Shown here piece after piece: positions 5,911 to 16,741 of a stretch of 64,000 nucleotides of DNA. Positions within the stretch are counted from its first letter, which is position 1; each line of letters opens with the position of its first letter. The notes under the pieces are model-generated. The model had not been told where the DNA came from. It was given only the letters and a program-made list of their open reading frames with translations, and ran no database searches. This stretch comes from an uncultured Acidimicrobiia bacterium (GTDB lineage Bacteria > Actinomycetota > Acidimicrobiia > Spongiisociales > UBA5794). The stretch lies in assembly GCA_963812375.1 (NCBI GenBank), contig CAWEUW010000007.1, positions 489,791-553,790 of the forward strand. Reading direction: 5' to 3'. A program made the translations under genes and the position numbers.

Positions 5911-6145
5911 GTGATCCTTCGCCCCAAGCGGCCTGATCGGGCTGCCGACCCGGCCCGCCACCGAGAGGATACGACCGCGTGGGTGGGTTCACCTGCGGAT
6001 GTGCGCCCGACCACGGTGTGCACGGTGCGATACGGCCGGCGGCGGGGCGGGGGTCCCCGCCTGCCGGCGGAGGGCGGCGAAGCCGCCCGGGGAATGTCAC
6101 AGCCTGCGAACATGGGGCTACCGGACAGCGAACGAGGTGGCGGAG

Positions 6146-7451
<1,306 letters not shown>

Positions 7452-7454
7452 GCC

Positions 7455-9652
7455 GTGACCGCCACCGACCTCGCCCTCACCCACGTCCATCTCACCGTCG
7501 ACGACGGAGTCGCCGTCGCCCTGCTCGACCGTGCCGGGGAGCCCCTCAACACGGTCAACCCCGAGCTGGCCGGGGACCTGGCCACGGTGGTCGCCGAGGT
7601 GGAACGCGAGCCGTCGATCAAGGCGCTGGTCATCGGCTCGGCCAAGCGGGACAACTTCCTCGCCGGGGCCGACATCCGCTGGCTGCAGGCGTTCCAGGAC
7701 CCGGCGTCGGCCAGCGAGGCGCTCGGCCAGGGCCAGCGGTTGTTCGCCCGCATCGAGCGACTCCACACGGTCATGGGGAAGCCGGTGGTGGCCGCCATCC
7801 ACGGCTCCTGTCTCGGGCGGCGGGCTCGAGCTGGCCATGGCCTGCGGCATCCGCATCTGCTCGGACGACGAGAGGAAGACCCAGCTCGGCCAGCCCGAGG
7901 TGAAGCTGGGGCTGATCCCGGGCGGCGGCGGGACCCAGCGGCTCCCTCACCTGGTCGGCATCGCCGCCGGCCTCGACCTGATGATGTCCGGGCGGTCGGT
8001 GCGCCCCCGCAGTGCCCTCAAGATGGGGCTTGGTCGACGAGATCTGCCCGAAGGAGGTGCTGCTCGAGGTCGCCGTCACCCGGGCCCGCCAGGCGATAGG
8101 GCGACCCGACGAGACGCCGACCGGCTCCACGTTCGGGCGGATCACCGGGTGGCTGTCGCCCAAGCACCTCCAGGAGCTGGCCCTCGAGGAGAACCCGATC
8201 GGGCGCCGACTGCTCTTCTCCAAGGCCGAGGAGCGGATGCTCGAGGAGACCGGGGGGAACTACCCGGCGCCGGCGGCGGTGCTCCGGGCGGTCAAGGCAG
8301 GAGTCGAGCAGGGGCCGGATGCCGGCTACGCCGCCGAGCTGGCGGAGTTCTCAACGGTTGTGGTGTCTCCCGAGGCCAAGGCGCTGATCGGGGTGTTCTT
8401 CGACTCCCAGGCGCTCAAGCACGACCCTGGCGTCGCCGGCGACGTCACGCCCCGCCCGGTGGCCAAGGTCGGGGTGATAGGAGGCGGACTGATGGGCGGC
8501 GGCATCGCCGCGGTGAACACGCTGCAGGCCGGGGTCCGCACCCGCCTGAAGGAGGTCGACGCCGCCGCGGTGGGGCGCGGCCTGGCTCACGTCCACCGCA
8601 TGGTCGACGACCAGGTGGCCAGGCGGCGGCTCCACGAACGTGATGCCGCCAAGGCCGCCCAGCTGATCACCGGGACCGTCGACTGGTCCGGTTTCCACGA
8701 CGCCGACGTGGTCATCGAGGCGGTGTTCGAGGACCTGGAGCTGAAACGCGCCGTGCTCGCCGAGGTCGAGGCGGTGACCGGGGACGACACCATCTTCGCT
8801 TCCAACACGTCGTCGATCCCGATCGCCCTCATCGCCGAAACGGCGTCCCGGCCGCACAACGTCATCGGCATGCACTACTTCTCCCCGGTGGAGAAGATGC
8901 CCCTGCTCGAGGTCGTGGTCGCACCGACGACCGCCGACGAGGTCACCGTCACCTGTGTCGAGTTGGGGCGGCGCCAGGGCAAGACGGTCATCGTGGTCAA
9001 CGACGGCCCCGGCTTCTACACGTCCCGGATCCTCGGTCCCCTACATGAACGAGGTCGGCCACCTGCTCGCCGAGGGGGTCCGGATCGAGGACATCGACCA
9101 GGCGATGACCCGCTGGGGATTCCCGGTCGGTCCGGTGACCCTGGCCGACGAGGTGGGCATCGACGTCGGCGCCAAGATCGGCGTGATCATGGAGGAGGCG
9201 TTCGGGTCGCGGATGGCGCCCAGCCAGGGCTTCGCCCGGCTGGTGGCCGACGGCCGCAAGGGGCGCAAGAACGGCCGCGGGTTCTACCGCTACGAGGACG
9301 GGGCCAAGCAAGGGGTCGACCCGTCGGTGTACGACCTGCTCGAGGTCACCCCGGCCGCCGGCCTGCGCACCGACCAGGTCCAGGAACGGCTCTACCTGCA
9401 CCTGCTCAACGAGTCGGCGCGCTGCCTGGAGGAGGGCATCCTCCGCAGTGCCCGCGACGGGGACATCGGTGCCGTCTTCGGGCTGGGATACCCGCCGTTC
9501 CGCGGCGGCCCGTTCACCACCATCGACCGGTCTTGGCGCCGCCGAGGTCGTGGCCAGGCTGGACGCCCTGGCCGAGGCAGCACGGCGACCGATACGCCCC
9601 CGCCGACCTGCTCCGCACCGCCGCCAAGGACGGCAAGCCGCTCAGGGGCTGA
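7455..9652 (+). CDS. fadJ: Fatty acid oxidation complex alpha subunit (several frameshifts)
   Basis: [73 protein letters not shown]. Confidence 0.9.
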
Positions 9653-9689
9653 CACTCCGGACCGACCCCCAGGGCGTGTCGTGGCCGGG

Positions 9690-9869
9690 TCAGTCGGCCA
9701 GGTTGAAGGGGACGAGGGTGATGGTGGCGACGCCGATGTCGAGGGCAATCTCGTCGCCGCCCGAGTACGGGCCGGTGACGGTGTAGCCGCCTCCTTGCGG
9801 GCTGAGCGTGTGCACGATGATCTCGGCGCCGTCGGGCCCTTCAGGCTCGATCACCCAGTACCTCGGCAC
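9690..9869 (-). pseudogene. C-terminal fragment of a Uma2-family endonuclease
   Basis: Manual translation: VPRYWVIEPEGPDGAEIIVHTLSPQGGGYTVTGPYSGGDEIALDIGVATITLVPFNLAD*; no start of its own; matches the Uma2 VPxYW(I/V) tail. Confidence 0.7.
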
Positions 9870-9924
9870 TCTCGAAGGTCCAGGACCGGCGACAGGTCAC
9901 ACTCAGAGCGCCCGGGAAGGGGGC

Positions 9925-10375
9925 ATGAGAGTGGTCCCGTCCGGGGTGCCCGACCAGATTCGGAGTGCAGAGGACCGTTTCAACCGTCCCTACCGTCCCC
10001 CGAAGGACGGTTCAGACGGTTCAGACGGTGGTTTGCACTTCATATCTGGCGGCGACCCGCGGGCGGTCATCTACTGCCGGGCGGATGGCGATGGCGTCGA
10101 CCAGCGCCAGGAGGAGGCGTGCCTCGGGTTGGCTGCCGAGCGTGGGCTCGGTCTCCACCGTCGTTACCTGGTCGACCAGGGTGCTCTACCGGCATCTTGG
10201 CGGCCAGGACCGCCTGCTCGATGCGCTTGACCGTGGTGATGAGCCAGCTCGTGTCCTGCCGGTGGTCGTCCCTCACGACATCCCCGTCGATCCGGTGGCG
10301 TTGCGGCCGTCGCCGGATCAGGTGGCCCGGATGAGACGTCGTCAGCAGCGGATTCAGGAGGCGGGCAGGCGATGA
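9925..10375 (+). CDS. Degenerate serine recombinase (resolvase) N-terminal-like protein, frameshift near 10150
   Basis: RAVIYCRAD...QRQEEACLGLAAERGL, then ...GQDRLLDALDRGD; stop overlaps the next ATG. Confidence 0.5.
9974..10029. repeat. Inverted iteron-like hexamer array
   Basis: ACCGT(T/C) at 9974, 9983, 9992 and its complement GACGGT at 10006, 10015, 10024, all with 9-bp period. Confidence 0.8.
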
Positions 10376-10698
10376 CGACTGGTGGCTTTCCGATCGACTG
10401 GCAGCCGACCGACCTCGACATCGTGCTCGCCTGGGCGGAACTCCTCGACCACCTCGGCGGCGAGTTGGTTCCCGAGTTGGACCCGTCCTCGGACATGAGC
10501 CATGCGGTCGACGGGGCCGGGCGGCTGGTGTTCAAGTTCGATGCTCACCCGGGCCTCGTGTTCGCCCTCGATCGTCGCCGGGGCTTCGCCCTCCGCTACA
10601 CCGTTCTGCCGTCCGGCGAGGAGGCCGAGTGCGTCATCGCGGCTGACGGGGTGGAGATCGCCCGGACGCTGGACCCTGGCTTCCCGGGTGACAACTGA
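10372..10698 (+). CDS. Hypothetical protein (108 aa)
   Basis: Intact ORF with upstream AGGAGG and ATGA coupling; no recognised motif. Confidence 0.6.
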   Translation: MTTGGFPIDWQPTDLDIVLAWAELLDHLGGELVPELDPSSDMSHAVDGAGRLVFKFDAHPGLVFALDRRRGFALRYTVLPSGEEAECVIAADGVEIARTLDPGFPGDN

Positions 10699-10943
10699 AA
10701 GCCCACCAGAGGGTCCGGTAGAGCGCGTTTGAGGCGATTCTCCCTCGGTGATGGGGCAAGACACCGCGAGCCCGGCTAGCGGCCTCTACGGCGCGATTTG
10801 GGGCGTCGAGAAGTTAGTCCTGCTGCTGGAACCAGCAGGAGGGCGCTGACGAAAACCGAAAACCTGTTCGCATGAGTGCCGCGCTGATCGCACGGTTTCT
10901 TACGATGCGGTTTCCCGCGATGCCGACGCCCTCCCCTCGCGAA

Positions 10944-10973
10944 GAGAGGCGGGGCCAATCGGCCCCGCCTCTC
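10944..10973. terminator. Strong hairpin downstream of the PRC-barrel gene
   Basis: GAGAGGCGGGGCC-aatc-GGCCCCGCCTCTC, perfect 13-bp stem. Confidence 0.65.
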
Positions 10974-10991
10974 CGCGATCGTACGTTGCGA

Positions 10992-11333
10992 CTAGAAGCT
11001 GCTGTAGTACGAGCCGAGCTTGTCACGGTACAAGTCGGACGTGTAGTCCAGGTTGTCCGGATCGAGCTCTGGCGAGTTCTTGATCTGCTCCTTGGTCAGT
11101 CGCACTGACACCTTCTCATTGTCCTGGTCGATGGCCTGGATCACACCGGCCGGCAGCAGAACCTTGCGACCGAAGATCCAGGGGCCGGTGTCGACGACGA
11201 CGTAGGACGAGCTCACGTCGTATGTGGCCTCGTCGATCTTCCCGATCTCCCCGTCCGTGGCCACGACGTCGAAACCATCGATGTCGAGGGGCACGCCCAT
11301 ATACTGGTCGGGATAAGTCCATAGGTCCGTCAT
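10992..11333 (-). CDS. PRC-barrel domain protein
   Basis: GFDVVATDGEIGKIDE...YVVVDTGPWIFGRKVLLPAG...LTKEQIKNSPE; purine-rich RBS. Confidence 0.9.
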   Translation of the reverse strand: MTDLWTYPDQYMGVPLDIDGFDVVATDGEIGKIDEATYDVSSSYVVVDTGPWIFGRKVLLPAGVIQAIDQDNEKVSVRLTKEQIKNSPELDPDNLDYTSDLYRDKLGSYYSSF

Positions 11334-11419
11334 GTGGACACCTCTTTCTCCTAGTTGGTGTTGCGAGAGGTTCGGGGCGATCACTTCCCGACTCTCGTTC
11401 CTACCCGGGGTTCTCATAT

Positions 11420-11446
11420 CTACCCGGGAGGCGAGCAGCCGAAACC
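11420..11446 (-). promoter_or_regulatory. SigF/SigB-type stress promoter for the PRC-barrel gene
   Basis: Minus strand GGTTT-N16-GGGTAG. Confidence 0.55.
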
Positions 11447-11621
11447 GACGGATGCTCGAAAGCTCGGATCGAAGCGAAGGATGCGCGCCTGCCGCTGCCC
11501 ACAGCGACCGATGGGATCTGCGCCCTCGCCACTCGTGCTTGATGAGACGGCCGCCGCGCCGATCCACGACCGTTGCCAGCCCACCGCGGCGGGCGCCCCC
11601 AGGTGGCGAGGGCAACTCTGC

Positions 11622-12698
11622 TCAGGCCGTCAGGTCACCGACCACGAACGCTCCCGGCTTCCGCAGCTCGAGCCCGACCCTGGTCTCCAACCGAGCCTGG
11701 GTCGTGTTGTACTAGTGGCCGGAGCCGAGGATCACGTCGGCCCCGTCGCGGAACAGCGCCGGGAACCACACCAACCTGGCGCTCTCCCTCGGCCTGAGCC
11801 TGATGGCGTCGGGTGCGAACCGTCCGACGATCGACTGACCGGCAGGCATCCTCGTGGACAGGGCGACCGGCGCACCCCACGCGTCTGCCGGGCCGAGTCG
11901 ATGGGCAGCGAGCGGCCACCGGCACCGGGGTCCGACATCACGTAGACGTCGCTGTCCTTGGTGAGTTCGATGCCCTCGAAGTCGGTGGGGTGCAGCACCA
12001 CGGTGAACGGGCCGGGGATGCCGGCGACCTGCAACTTGGTGTGGACTTGCGGATCGTGGACAGCACGTCGGTGGCGAACGCCTGGGCCAGCACGCCCGAA
12101 GTGTTGAGGATGCCGTTGAAGTCGTCCTTCGGGGCGGCGTTGTCCACGTCACCGCTGATGACCAGGCCCTCGATGGCTGCGGTCACGTCCGCCAGCAGCG
12201 AGGAGGTCACCGAGTCGGCGAAGCCGGGCACGTCCTGCAACAGGCGCTCGGGGATCGGGGGAGCCAGTTCGGCGACGACCCTGGCCCGGTCCTCGACCAA
12301 CACGTACTGGTAGTCGGCAACTGGCTTGCTCGTGTAGTCGGCGCGGGAGGCGGCGTTGGACGTGTGGACCGACTGCCTTCCGTAGGAGAACTGGTCGGTG
12401 CCTTCCAACCCAGTGCCGGAATCTGGGAGAGCAGGTCCCTCGGTGGCACATCGACATCGGTGACCTCCGCGGCCGCCACCGGGACGGAGATCGACCCTGA
12501 CGGGGTGACAGCCTTCGAGCCAACCGCCGCGTGGTGGTCGGCCACCATGGTCCGCATCGTCGACTTCCAGGAGGCGGGGTTCAGCCGGCGCTTGGCCAGC
12601 GCCTCGTCAGAGTCGTCGCCCTTGGCGAAGCGGGTGCGACTGACCTCGTCGCCACCGATCTCCTCAGCGGCTTCCATCGAGGCGAGCTTCGCCTTGAG
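11622..12698 (-). pseudogene. Phage major capsid protein, HK97 fold; N-terminally truncated, frameshifted, in-frame TAG at 11712-11714
   Basis: FNGILNTSGV, VVLHPTDF..IELTKD, WGAPVALST.MPAG..IVG, and C-terminal NTTQARLETRVGLELRKPGAFVVGDLTA*. Confidence 0.8.
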
Positions 12699-13048
12699 AC
12701 AGGATCTCCACCAGGAGGTAGGGCGTCCCCGTGTACCGGATGTTGTCCTCGGAAGAGGCATCGAACACGATCACGTCCGGCACGAACTCATCCCGCCCGA
12801 CCTTCCACGCCCACTCGTGCAGCACCTCGACGCTCGCCGGAAGTTGGGCATGCAGGAGCGCCTCGAAGTTCCTGGCCGATTCGCTGGTGGCGTCTGGTCG
12901 CCGACGGGCTCACCACGAACTCGCCGTCGACGTACTCGCCACGCGCATCCTCTGGGAGCGCCAGATATTCGTCCCACGACATGGGAACCCGATCGCCGTC
13001 CTGCATGGTGACCATCGCGCCATCCACGGTACTCCTCGTGCTCGTCAC
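12697..13048 (-). pseudogene. N-terminal part of a Uma2-family endonuclease, broken off after VEILS
   Basis: [33 protein letters not shown]...FVPDVIVF...TPYLLVEILS; one frameshift near 12875; GGAGG before the GTG at 13048 (start uncertain). Confidence 0.85.
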
Positions 13049-13082
13049 ACCTACCTCCCGGCCCTCGGGCCTTCGACGACGA

Positions 13083-13104
13083 AAGCTACGAGGAGCCTGT
13101 GACA
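13083..13104 (-). promoter_or_regulatory. RecA-NDp/PafBC-like promoter motif upstream of Uma2
   Basis: Minus strand TGTCAC-aggctcctcg-TAGCTT (TGTCxx-N10-TANNNT). Confidence 0.5.
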
Positions 13105-13116
13105 GGACTGCCGGGA

Positions 13117-13728
13117 TCAGACGGCCAGGGTGAGCTCCCAGCGGTCGTCGGTCGTCGGGGCGAAGCCGACCTTGCGCAGGTAGCGACGGTGCGGGTCGGT
13201 GGTGGCGACGGCGGCGACGCGGTGGATGCCGTGCTCGTCGAGTAGCCGGTGCGGCGAGCGGTAGAGGAACCGGGCCGGCTCCATGTCGCGGTAGCGCGGA
13301 GCCACGTAGTCGAGCTCGATCTCCAGCGTGTCCCGGTACTGGCGGCCGATCACCACCCCGGCCGGGACCATGTCGCGCAGCACGAACACCACGATCCGGT
13401 CGGCGCCTATCGGTAGCGCGAACTCGGGCTGGAACTTCTCGATCTCGTCGGTGTGGAATTCGAGGTACTCGTTGAGGTACACCGAATCGGGCTGCACCTC
13501 GAGCAGCGAGAAGTACTCCTCGTCGGTCCACCACTGCCACAGCCGGAACCCATGGAGGCCGACGATGACGGCGTTGGTCGCCGCCACCGGGTAGGCGCCC
13601 ACCAACAGTGCGTAGATGCAGAACAGGAACGAGCCCACCAGGCCGATCATCCGCAGCTTGAGCACCGACGACATCGAGAGCGAGATGACGACGGTGAGGG
13701 AGGCGACGTACCCGAGGACCTCGATCAC
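13117..13728 (-). CDS. Membrane protein (YgjV-like N-terminus, acetyltransferase-like C-terminus)
   Basis: [21 protein letters not shown]..., then [10 protein letters not shown] and YLRKVGF. Confidence 0.75.
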
Positions 13729-13768
13729 CTGCCGAACGTAGCACCCGCCTTGCCCCGACCGCCCTCCC

Positions 13769-13830
13769 CTCCCAGCGAACTTTGAGCGAGTGACGCCATT
13801 GGGTGTGGTCATTCGCTCAAAGAATGGGAG
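13769..13830. repeat. REP-like palindrome, copy 1
   Basis: CTTTGAGCGAGTGAC-N13-GTCATTCGCTCAAAG with outer CTCCCA/TGGGAG arms. Confidence 0.7.
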
Positions 13831-13849
13831 GCCACCGTTCCCTGGTAGC

Positions 13850-15433
13850 ATGACTCCCGTACGGGCATCTCGCCCTACCGACGCCGGAGGCCTCCGCCCC
13901 GGCGGGGCCAGCAGGGCATCCTCCCGGATCCACTCGAGCAGGCCTTCTTCGCCCTCGACCAGGAGCCTTCATGCCTTCCCCTTCGCCGATCTCGGCGTGC
14001 CCGGTGACCTCGTCGCCGTCCTCGACCGCGCCGGCCTCACCGAGCCCTTCCCCATCCAGACCGCCACGATCCCTGACGCCATGGCCGGCCGCGACATCGC
14101 CGGCCACGCCCCCACCGGGTCGGGCAAGACCCTGGCCTTCGCCATCCCGCTGGCGGTCAACGTCGGCCCGTCACGGCCTCGCCGCCCCTCCGGGCTGGTC
14201 CTCGTGCCCACCCGTGAGCTGGCCGAGCAGGTGCGGCGCGAGCTCGCTCCACTGGCATCGGCGGCCGGCCGTCGGGTGACCACCATCTACGGCGGCGTCG
14301 GCTACGGGCCGCAACGGGCCGCCCTCAACCGCGGCGCCGACATCGTGGTCGCCTGCCCAGGACGGCTCGAGGACCTCATCGAACAGCGTGCCGTCGACCT
14401 CTCCGGGGTCCACATCGCCGTGGTCGACGAGGCCGACCGGATGGCGGACATGGGGTTCCTCCCCGCCGTCAAGCGCATCCTCGACCTCACCGCCCACGAT
14501 CGGCAGACCCTCTTGTTCTCGGCAACGCTCGACGGCGTGGTCGACGTCCTGATCCGTCGGTACCAACGCGACCCGCGCCGCTTCGAAGTCGCCGGCGACG
14601 AGGGGGAGCCGGGCACGGTGCGTCACCTGTTCTGGCAGGCCGAGCACGCCGGCAAGGTCGGTCTCACCGCCGAGGTGGTGGCCCGCCACGACTCGGCCAT
14701 CGTGTTCTGCCGCACCAAGCACGGTGCCGATCGGCTCACCCGCCAGCTCGCCCAGCACGGGGTGCCGGCAGTCGCCATCCACGGAAACCGGACCCAGCCG
14801 CAGCGCCACCGCGCCCTACAGCGGTTCGCCTCCGGTGAGGTGCGCGCCCTGGTGGCCACCGATGTGGCCGCCCGAGGCATCCACGTCGACGCCGTCGGCT
14901 GCGTGGTGCACTTCGACCCGCCCAACGACGAGAAGGACTACCTCCACCGCTCCGGGCGCACCGGCCGCGCCGGGGTCGACGGCACCGTGGTCTCGCTGCT
15001 GATGCACGACCAGGTGCGGTCGGCGCAGCGGATCCAACGGAGTCTCGGCCTCCGCCAGGGCGTCGACCGCGTCGACCTGCACACGCTGGGGGCGCCGCTG
15101 ATCGCAACGGTCGCCCGTCCGGCGCATGCCGCCTCCGAGGTTCCGGAACGCGGCGAGCGCCGCAATGCCGGCCGGCCCCGGCAGGACGGCGCCGACCGCA
15201 ACCGCCGTGGCGGGCAGGGGCGGAACCGCTCCGATGCGGCTCGGCGTCGGGACGCCGGCGGCGATCGACGCTATTCGGCGTCGACCGACCGTGACAACGC
15301 CGCTGGTTGGCAAGGCGAGCGGCCGTCCGACGAGCGTCGTGGCGAGGGATCCCGCAGCCAGCGATCCGGCCAACCGGGCGGCTCCCATCGCGCCCGCCAG
15401 ACGAATCGGAACCGGCGCCGCCGCTATCCGTGA
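13850..15433 (+). CDS. DEAD-box RNA helicase
   Basis: [41 protein letters not shown]; Arg-rich tail; start uncertain. Confidence 0.95.
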
Positions 15434-15548
15434 GCGCGGTCTAGCCGGCCGCCCGCCGCCGCCGCTTCGACCCGGACGACACTCAGGCGGTCGACGCTCC
15501 TCCCGCTCTATACAATCGCCGTCCGTGGCGACCGAGAGAGGAAGCGGG

Positions 15549-16741
15549 TTGAAGACGCACGCCGTCACCATGCTGGGGACCGGGCTGATCGGTGACTTCT
15601 ACACGATGACCCTGCACGGCCAGCGGGGCCGCGACCGGGTTGGGGTCGTGTACTCCCGAACCGAGGAGCGGGCGGCCGCCTTCGCCGAGCGCTGGGACAT
15701 CCCCGCCACGTCGACCGACATGCGCCAGGCGATCGAGCATCCCGACACCGACGTGGTGGTCGTCGGCCTCCCCAACCATCTCCACGAGGAGGCGATCGCC
15801 CTCGCCGCCGACGCCGGCAAGGCGATCCTCTGCACCAAGCCCCTGGCCCGCACCGCCGACGAGGCGAAGCGGATCCTCGACAAGGTGGAGGCAGCCGGGG
15901 TGTTCGCCGGGTATCTCGAGGACCTCTGCTACACCCCGAAGACGCTCAAGGCGATCGCCGCCGTCGAGGGCGGTGCGGTCGGCGACGTCACCTGGGTGCG
16001 CTCCCGGGAGACCCACCCGGGCCCGCACAGCGCCTGGTTCTGGTCGGGCGATCTCGCCGGCGGCGGGGCTGTCGTCGACCTCGGATGCCACTGCATCGAG
16101 ATCATCCGCTGCTTCGTCGGCAAGGGGAACCGCCCGGTCGAGGTGATGGGCGTCGTCGACACCTTCGTCCATCCCATCGAGGCCGAGGACAACGCGGTGG
16201 CGCTGATCCGGTTCGAGTCGGGCGCCATCGGCCAGTTCGAGGTGAGCTGGACCTTCCGGGGCGGGATGGACCTGCGCGACGAGGTGGCCGGCACCGAGGG
16301 CACCATCTGGCTCAACCACTTCCTGCGCACCGGCTACGAGATGTTCACCGACGGGTGGAGGCGGCGGCTACGTCGCCGAGAAGGCGGAGACGTCGGCGGG
16401 GTGGCTGTTCCCGGTGGGGGACGAGGTGGTCGAGCTCGGCTACGTCGACATGTTCGCCGACATGTTCGACGCCATGGATGCCGGCACCGAGCCGCAGGGA
16501 GACCTTCTACGACGGGTACGTGGTGAACGGGATCATCGACGCCGTGTACCGCTCCGCCGCCTCGAAGCGGTGGGAGCCGGTCGACATCGAATGGCGGGGC
16601 GGATCGACCCCGCCCATCGCCAAGCCGGCGGCCACCTTCGAGCGCTACACCGTCATCAAGGAGGAGGTCCTCCCCGACGGCCGGCGCAAGATGATCCTCA
16701 AGGACCCAGACACCGGCGAGTTCCACGACCGCATCGTGTGA
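15549..16741 (+). CDS. Gfo/Idh/MocA oxidoreductase (frameshifted)
   Basis: [30 protein letters not shown]. Confidence 0.85.

Follow-up and report, generated by a model that had tools for sequence, protein, structure and literature searches.

In the 64,000-nucleotide stretch of an uncultured Acidimicrobiia bacterium analysed here (contig CAWEUW010000007.1 of assembly GCA_963812375.1; "the window" below), a gene of the Uma2 nuclease family (PF05685) is interrupted by an insert that carries the remains of a phage-type major capsid gene. The locus is an ordinary prophage-type relic disrupting an accessory nuclease gene, not a working phage satellite. The original prediction, made from the sequence alone, had described a single Uma2 gene split by an eroded, phage-derived, capsid-bearing insert, and this part holds. 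Its further proposal, a satellite lineage that targets multi-copy Uma2 genes, rests on this one event, since no second instance of such a capsid gene within a Uma2 gene was found.

The window lies on contig C7 of a 3.03-Mb genome with 70% GC (G000), which is assembled in 12 contigs and has a marker completeness of 64.85%. The split gene, the insert and the two neighbouring genes are arranged as follows.

9870..12697, no strand: insert of 2,828 bp that replaces 53-55 nt (18 codons) of Uma2; absent from the relatives G003 and G004
12698..13048, minus strand: 5' part of Uma2 (PF05685), ending ...PYLLVEILS; from Pfam profile positions 1-39 and 32-108 and the alignment to G004
9690..9869, minus strand: 3' part of Uma2, VPRYWVI...FNLAD plus stop; from Pfam profile positions 122-162 and the alignment to G004
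11622..12695, minus strand: HK97-type major capsid pseudogene, within the insert; from protein search, alignment and tblastn
ending at 9652, plus strand: fadJ, convergent with Uma2
13851-13117, minus strand: YgjV/GNAT-like gene

The undisturbed state of the gene was found in relatives. The region 8800-14200 of the window was compared with G000 itself and 40 relatives, and some part of it was matched in 39 of the 41 genomes (a tally that counts the unpublished genomes G027 and G038, neither of which supports any claim made here). In agreement with the original suggestion that an uninterrupted allele might be present beside fadJ, both G004 and G003, which belong to the same genus, have one continuous Uma2 gene between fadJ and the YgjV/GNAT gene. 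The G004 locus lies on one contig and contains an intact open reading frame (ORF) of 194 aa (183 aa from the ATG), which scores 87.3 bits over positions 1-163 of PF05685; G003 has the same gene with a frame change of its own at a different place. The flanks of the insert are 93.5% (5' part) and 95.4% (flank with the 3' part) identical to G004 at the nucleotide level, and 57 of 59 residues of the 3' part, counted on the alignment, are equal. When aligned, the flanks are separated by 55 nt in G004 and by 53 nt in G003. Because they align to one G004 gene at a distance of only 55 nt, the two halves are, judged by this alignment, parts of one gene, and an origin from two unrelated Uma2 paralogues does not apply.

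The segment lost from the window copy corresponds to 18 residues of G004, TDRGRDLVRKAHKYAAGG, between VEILS and VPRYW, close to the gap of roughly 20 aa estimated beforehand, and the lost 55 nt have no copy elsewhere in G000. The two same-strand parts with their PYLLVEILS and VPRYWVI ends had been placed accurately (13048-12698 and 9869-9690); the 5' half had been treated as one frame, and the comparison with G004 reveals a 1-nt frameshift near 12874 that was missed. PF05685 matches three pieces of the gene, at profile positions 1-39 (E 1.7e-4), 32-108 (E 2.5e-4) and 122-162 (E 0.2). Each piece alone stays under the 27-bit cut-off, a full-length profile match was not obtained, and a six-frame Pfam search of the genome does not report the broken locus. 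The window copy is a disrupted and dead member of the family that has lost the stretch between VEILS and VPRYW, where the original prediction placed the catalytic lysine region.

Uma2 is itself an accessory, lineage-specific addition at this spot, because in G001 (C75:11537-11596) a gap of ~60 nt without Uma2 separates the fadJ end from the GNAT gene. The number of Pfam matches to the family varies between the genomes, with four in G004, six in G003 (two of which are the halves of the frameshifted orthologue), two in G000 beyond the broken copy, one in G002 and none in G001. The other copies of G000, G003 and G004 are reported by the Pfam search without internal stops.

The joints of the insert are plain. 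On the left, ...TACCTCGGCAC is followed by TCTCGAAGG..., and the change coincides exactly with the first of the VPRYW codons; on the right, ...CGCCTTGA is followed by GACAGGATC.... Microhomology at the joints amounts to 0-2 nt, with at most the dinucleotide TC (against G003) common to the lost segment and the insert. Neither direct nor inverted repeats were found at the insert ends (9870, 12697), and an attachment (att)-type repeat was not found either; a serine-type 2-nt crossover is still compatible with these ends.

Searches for the modules of a mobile element in the insert were negative. No integrase or recombinase was detected with Pfam, PDB sequences or a six-frame search of the genome, and the ORFs beside the capsid gene, which have only ~1.7 kb of space, gave no Pfam or PHROG match to replication, regulation or packaging genes. 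Scans of the insert region for tRNAs and Rfam families returned nothing, the promoter scan was empty (0 sites), and the two terminator-like sites do not exceed the chance number given by shuffled sequences. A tblastx comparison of the insert with the G000 genome yielded composition noise only. The sole match of its left part to phage records was a chance-level one of 46 nt, and the left end has no copy in the 40 relatives. As there is no recombinase, no att repeat and no replication or packaging gene, and the capsid gene is dead, the insert is not a functioning mobile element.

The capsid gene predicted in the insert is real, as all seven proteins matched by its 122-aa piece at 12408-12043 carry PF05065 (E 6.7e-29 to 2.4e-4). 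The best match, P0001, is 79% identical and the remaining ones 36-43%. P0001, used as a proxy, has similarity of <60% identity to proteins annotated as major capsid proteins in 103 phage records, and the window pieces align along the whole length of their homologues; the four pieces themselves matched 0 families in Pfam and PHROGs. By homology, the identity as an HK97-type major capsid protein is secure. The gene had been presented without lesions and is in fact broken. Its coding sequence passes through the frames 12695-12408, 12408-12043, 12040-11884 and 11882-11715, meets a TAG at 11714-11712 and continues at 11711-11625, so that with three frame changes and one stop codon an intact reading frame is not present. 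At the other end no stop closes the frame before the right junction, and all six full-length homologues extend further N-terminally; hence the 5' end of the gene has probably been cut by about 10-50 codons.

Generally, frameshifts in G000 cannot be trusted on their own, because the assembly has extra single bases relative to G004 inside fadJ (9035, 9532 and 9579) and Uma2 (12874). The indels at 9532 and 9579 are absent from the X4 contigs of a ~95% identical relative. These single-base indels in conserved genes, together with a completeness of 64.85% in only 12 contigs, point to an error-prone long-read assembly. Independent sequence data were therefore consulted. Among public runs, the highest share of sampled words found in any run was 0.19, and the Logan contigs of four runs (X1 to X4, from four studies of soil and 'outdoor' metagenomes) were compared with positions 9500-13100. 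All four contain pieces of the insert letter for letter: 9870-10018 and 12232-12397 in X1, 11715-12153 in X2, 11483-11830, 11804-11957 and 11952-12120 in X3, and 10701-10944 and 11937-12140 in X4.

These contigs separate real lesions of the capsid gene from doubtful ones. The break near 12041 is present in letter-identical contigs of all three runs that cover it (X2, X3, X4), the break near 11885 is repeated exactly in X2 and X3, and the TAG in X3. Because independent short-read contigs repeat them exactly, these three lesions are real and common to wild populations. At 12408 the X2 contig has one base more, which puts the two frames in register, and this break is either private to G000 or an assembly error. 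In a contig of X1 one base is missing at 11890, and the frame stays broken.

The same contigs are neutral on the joints, which have no independent confirmation: in the four runs no contig bridges either junction as in the window, and 12646-12887 is without cover. Flank contigs in X2 and X4 are ~94-95% alike to the window and probably come from a G004-like relative. Two short sequences combine parts of the insert with other sequence. One X1 contig (259 nt, depth 2.3) matches 9870-10018 with its letters 111-259, and its first 110 letters match nothing in the stretch. P0009, a 69-aa protein from a 562-nt ENA contig, agrees exactly with window 12677-12543 in its first 45 aa and continues with 24 aa that occur nowhere in G000. 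Either these sequences show the same DNA in other arrangements, or they are chimeric short contigs.

Besides the capsid gene, the insert contains the following features.

10948..11445, minus strand: PRC-barrel gene cassette, paralogue of a chromosomal PRC gene
10944..10973: perfect inverted repeat of 13 bp around a 4-nt loop, shortly downstream of the PRC gene, a terminator-like hairpin without T tract
10372..10698, plus strand: orphan ORF of 108 aa with coding-type GC content at third codon positions (GC3, 0.85-0.93) and an AGGAGG motif upstream
10024..10300, minus strand: coding signal in two frames, ORF remnant of ~85 aa, from codon-position GC
9974..10029, no strand: 2.7 copies of GACGGTTCA (10006-10029) and an inverted partial copy (9974-9989)

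The PRC-barrel gene (11333-10995, 113 aa, intact) had been named in the original prediction, and the assignment is plausible with a PF05239 score just below threshold (19.1 bits against a cut-off of 21.2, E 0.0013, profile positions 8-77 of 78). Sequence comparison identifies the cassette as a diverged paralogue of a gene that the genus carries on its chromosome: it is 81.7% identical at the nucleotide level to G000:C8:174171-174648 and 85.8% identical to the G003 orthologue of that gene, and the similar block (10948-11445) takes in 112 nt upstream and part of the perfect hairpin. The protein shares 98 of 113 residues with that of G003, and with a dN of 0.082 and a dS of 0.318 (dN/dS 0.26) the gene is probably under purifying selection and the only working gene in the insert. 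G004 has no PRC homologue. The chromosomal PRC locus itself is syntenic between G000 (C8:171447-178005) and G003 (C5:163500-170500) at 93.5-95% identity, with ~435 nt beside the gene in G003 versus ~20 nt in G000.

Two other elements of the original description did not survive closer inspection. The frames proposed as a resolvase-like ORF lie antisense to the minus-strand ORF remnant, and GC3 favours this opposite strand. They have no Pfam match at E<=1 or E<=10, and phmmer against PDB at E<=10 gave no or unrelated matches. A six-frame search of the whole genome for serine recombinases (PF00239) found one match, on contig C9, and none in the insert. The proposed iteron array consists of the 2.7 copies of the 9-mer GACGGTTCA and the one inverted partial copy. 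These repeats cover the last part of the minus-strand ORF with its stop (10021-10023) and reach into the adjoining downstream sequence. Iteron-type origins have several direct repeats of about 17-22 bp, and with only 2.7 copies of a 9-mer this interpretation was rejected. The orphan 108-aa ORF matches itself only among 5.8 billion proteins, and its best Atlas score of 0.80 is below a useful level.

Outside the window's genome, relatives of the capsid are rare. In a sample of the order, 1 of 401 genomes had a match at E<=1e-10, namely G000 itself; in a sample of the class, 4 of 401 had one at E<=1e-8 (G000, G505 with 40% identity, G197 with 28% and G100 with 27%). A related capsid inside a Uma2 gene was seen in none of the ~800 genomes searched, where outside G000 only the G505 locus was read; the intact elements in Uma2 genes that the original prediction had proposed to look for did not turn up. 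A search of viral contigs with P0003 gave 11 loci at 25-35% identity, which were judged too distant.

The G505 capsid, 35-40% identical to that of the window, is the nearest relative borne by a genome. It belongs to an island of ~9.5 kb (stretch positions 6121-15584 of G505:C50:199000-214738) with the order tyrosine integrase, AAA_25 primase/helicase-like gene, capsid gene, 680-aa tape-measure-like gene, HNH gene, second tyrosine integrase and contig end. The island, a candidate satellite-like element, adjoins polA, an ANTAR regulator gene and an acyl-CoA dehydrogenase gene, and G505 has no Uma2. The capsid clade can thus live in small integrase-bearing islands, which where seen is not in Uma2. 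As the nearest genome-borne relative of the capsid lies in such an island, a satellite-like origin of the insert is conceivable.

The explanation we favour, and to which we give about an even chance, is that a deletion has left the insert behind as the immobile remains of a temperate phage-like element, which may have been a small island encoding a capsid. This element would have resided in the accessory Uma2 gene on the branch towards G000, once that lineage had separated from G003 and G004. A single deletion would then have run from near the capsid 5' end through the upstream part of the element into 53-55 nt of Uma2. In the G505 island this upstream part holds the integrase and replication genes. 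Because the order there is integrase, primase/helicase-like gene, capsid, a deletion upstream of the capsid gene would remove exactly these functions. It would have taken the integrase side, one att joint and some of Uma2, and the other joint would persist at 9869/9870. The capsid gene would have kept decaying afterwards, and what remains would be this gene, the PRC cassette with its upstream region and hairpin, and the two small ORFs.

Several results weigh against this explanation. A larger version of the element was not found in the viral, metagenome or genome collections searched: the capsid pattern gave 32 matches in viral contigs, 597 in JGI metagenome contigs and, with P0001 as query, 135 in GTDB genome contigs, of which none was confirmed as a relative, and a 33-nt pattern from the left end of the insert had 0 matches in metagenome and genome contigs. 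The G505 island is a distant relative and a single example. No mark of an att site is present at the left junction. The PRC gene has no homologue among 50,697 phage records and looks host-like, so the insert may derive from the chromosome of a relative instead of being the cargo of an element. End joining would account just as well for the 0-2 nt of microhomology and the small loss of target, and Ku is present in the genome.

The last points lead to a direct capture of DNA, in which a double-strand break in Uma2 was resected by ~55 nt and Ku/LigD-type end joining or illegitimate recombination ligated a 2.8-kb fragment into it. The source of the fragment would be a decayed prophage region in a related bacterium, from which it arrived through transduction, transformation or lysis, and no integration by a recombinase of its own would have taken place here. 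We consider this possible at a lower probability, and as an account of the data it ranks nearly as good as the deletion relic. It would explain joints that share only 0-2 nt and have no repeats, the small loss of target and, with Ku encoded in the genome (171.7 bits), the agent of repair. It also accommodates the mixture of a host-like PRC cassette (~82-86% identical to the genus gene at the nucleotide level, without a phage homologue) and a capsid gene possibly dead by then. The X1 contig, which joins the first 149 nt of the insert to 110 nt absent from the stretch, would then be the same DNA in another context; however, it is a single record at a depth of 2.3 and could be chimeric. Capture gives no reason for a fragment that begins near a gene boundary, namely the 5' end of the capsid gene. 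To our knowledge, with no literature search aimed at it, capture of kilobase-sized filler DNA has rarely been documented in bacteria.

The satellite lineage of the original prediction is a special case of the deletion relic, and we regard it as improbable. It would be a phiRv1-like, capsid-encoding element with the conserved VP-x-YW coding stretch as its att site, the rest of which was eroded by deletion. The positive evidence for it is limited to the position of the left joint, exactly at the VPRYW codon start. Insertion by serine integrases often takes place within genes and produces no long direct repeats, in keeping with the joints, Uma2 is multi-copy in the genus (four matches in G004, six in G003), and the related capsid of G505 resides in a small integrase-bearing island. 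Equally improbably, the relic could be a last trace of small capsid-encoding satellites of high-GC soil bacteria that enter multi-copy Uma2 genes with a serine-type recombinase, and, with as little probability, 9869/9870 could be the original attachment joint and the X1 contig a second insertion or the free form. Against such targeting, no trace of a recombinase was found by Pfam, PDB or six-frame searches, and G505 is free of Uma2 and carries tyrosine, not serine, integrases. The event is single: capsid matches occur in 1 of 401 genomes of the order sample and 4 of 401 of the class sample, and outside G000 not one was observed inside a Uma2 gene. The remaining Uma2 copies of G000, G003 and G004 were reported free of internal stops, and the left end of the insert is missing from 40 relatives and two collections. 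The literature searched contained no report of Uma2 as an integration or attachment site and returned one unrelated paper only.

An assembly artefact or strain mixture, in which the 2.8 kb would not lie within this gene in any cell, is very unlikely. G000 is error-prone, as seen from its completeness of 64.85% in 12 contigs, the extra bases in fadJ and Uma2 and the gap at 12408. However, after a gap of 53-55 nt the contig re-enters this gene with its orientation unchanged, which a chimeric join would not do, and contigs of four other studies contain exact copies of pieces of the insert. The analysis shows the replacement itself, which genes the insert contains, the breaks of the capsid gene and the lack of a recombinase and of repeats; the original integration and the single deletion are inferred.

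How the insert relates to known systems follows from its contents. Families like the PICIs (phage-inducible chromosomal islands) are defined by modules for integrase, regulation and replication and by packaging genes. Capsid-forming PICIs and other phage satellites are chromosomal islands that encode their own capsid protein (10.1101/2022.09.08.507074, PMC10085698); the insert shares a capsid gene of its own with them, but lacks integrase, regulation, replication and packaging genes, and its capsid gene is a pseudogene. It shows none of the testable defining features of satellite families and therefore is not a member, although it may descend from one. The G505 island resembles it in the HK97 capsid and in being a compact phage-like region, and differs in its two tyrosine integrases, its AAA_25, tape-measure-like and HNH genes and the lack of a PRC gene among the ORFs scanned. 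In cryptic or defective prophages, deletional decay leaves fragments, pseudogenes and a few cargo genes that are still selected, and the target gene stays disrupted. Compared with such remnants the relic in the window is unusually small and has no integrase-side or att remnant to prove integration. A review places phiRv1 of Mycobacterium tuberculosis, a small element with virion-type genes, inside the repeated chromosomal sequence REP13E12 and assigns it the serine recombinase Rv1586c (PMC9317374). Among known systems phiRv1 is the closest analogue. The insert is likewise small, phage-derived and inside a repeated family; however, phiRv1 has its recombinase and defined att sites, neither of which were found here, where 2.8 kb remain in one target copy.

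Next to the locus, between the YgjV/GNAT gene and a DEAD-box helicase gene, a hairpin-containing repeat of ~47 nt was observed at 13775-13822. It has copies of 82-94% identity elsewhere, often paired ~70 nt apart (G000:C9:602535-602663, G000:C11:246841-246960, G004:C1:1041243-1041358 and 94128-94261), and no match in Rfam.

As it stands, the locus is a routine gene disruption by a decaying phage-derived insert and of little importance. The frameshifts of this assembly are a mixture of real mutations and 1-nt assembly errors, which independent reads alone can tell apart. G004 and G003 on one side and G000 on the other form a clean natural before-and-after pair, which dates the insertion after a split of ~5% nucleotide divergence. 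Should the targeting of Uma2 be true, the satellites of Actinomycetota-like genomes would gain a new class of target, and the principle seen with phiRv1 and REP13E12 a second case. The host-like PRC cassette, apparently kept under purifying selection while the neighbouring capsid gene decays, follows the usual pattern of the domestication of prophage cargo.

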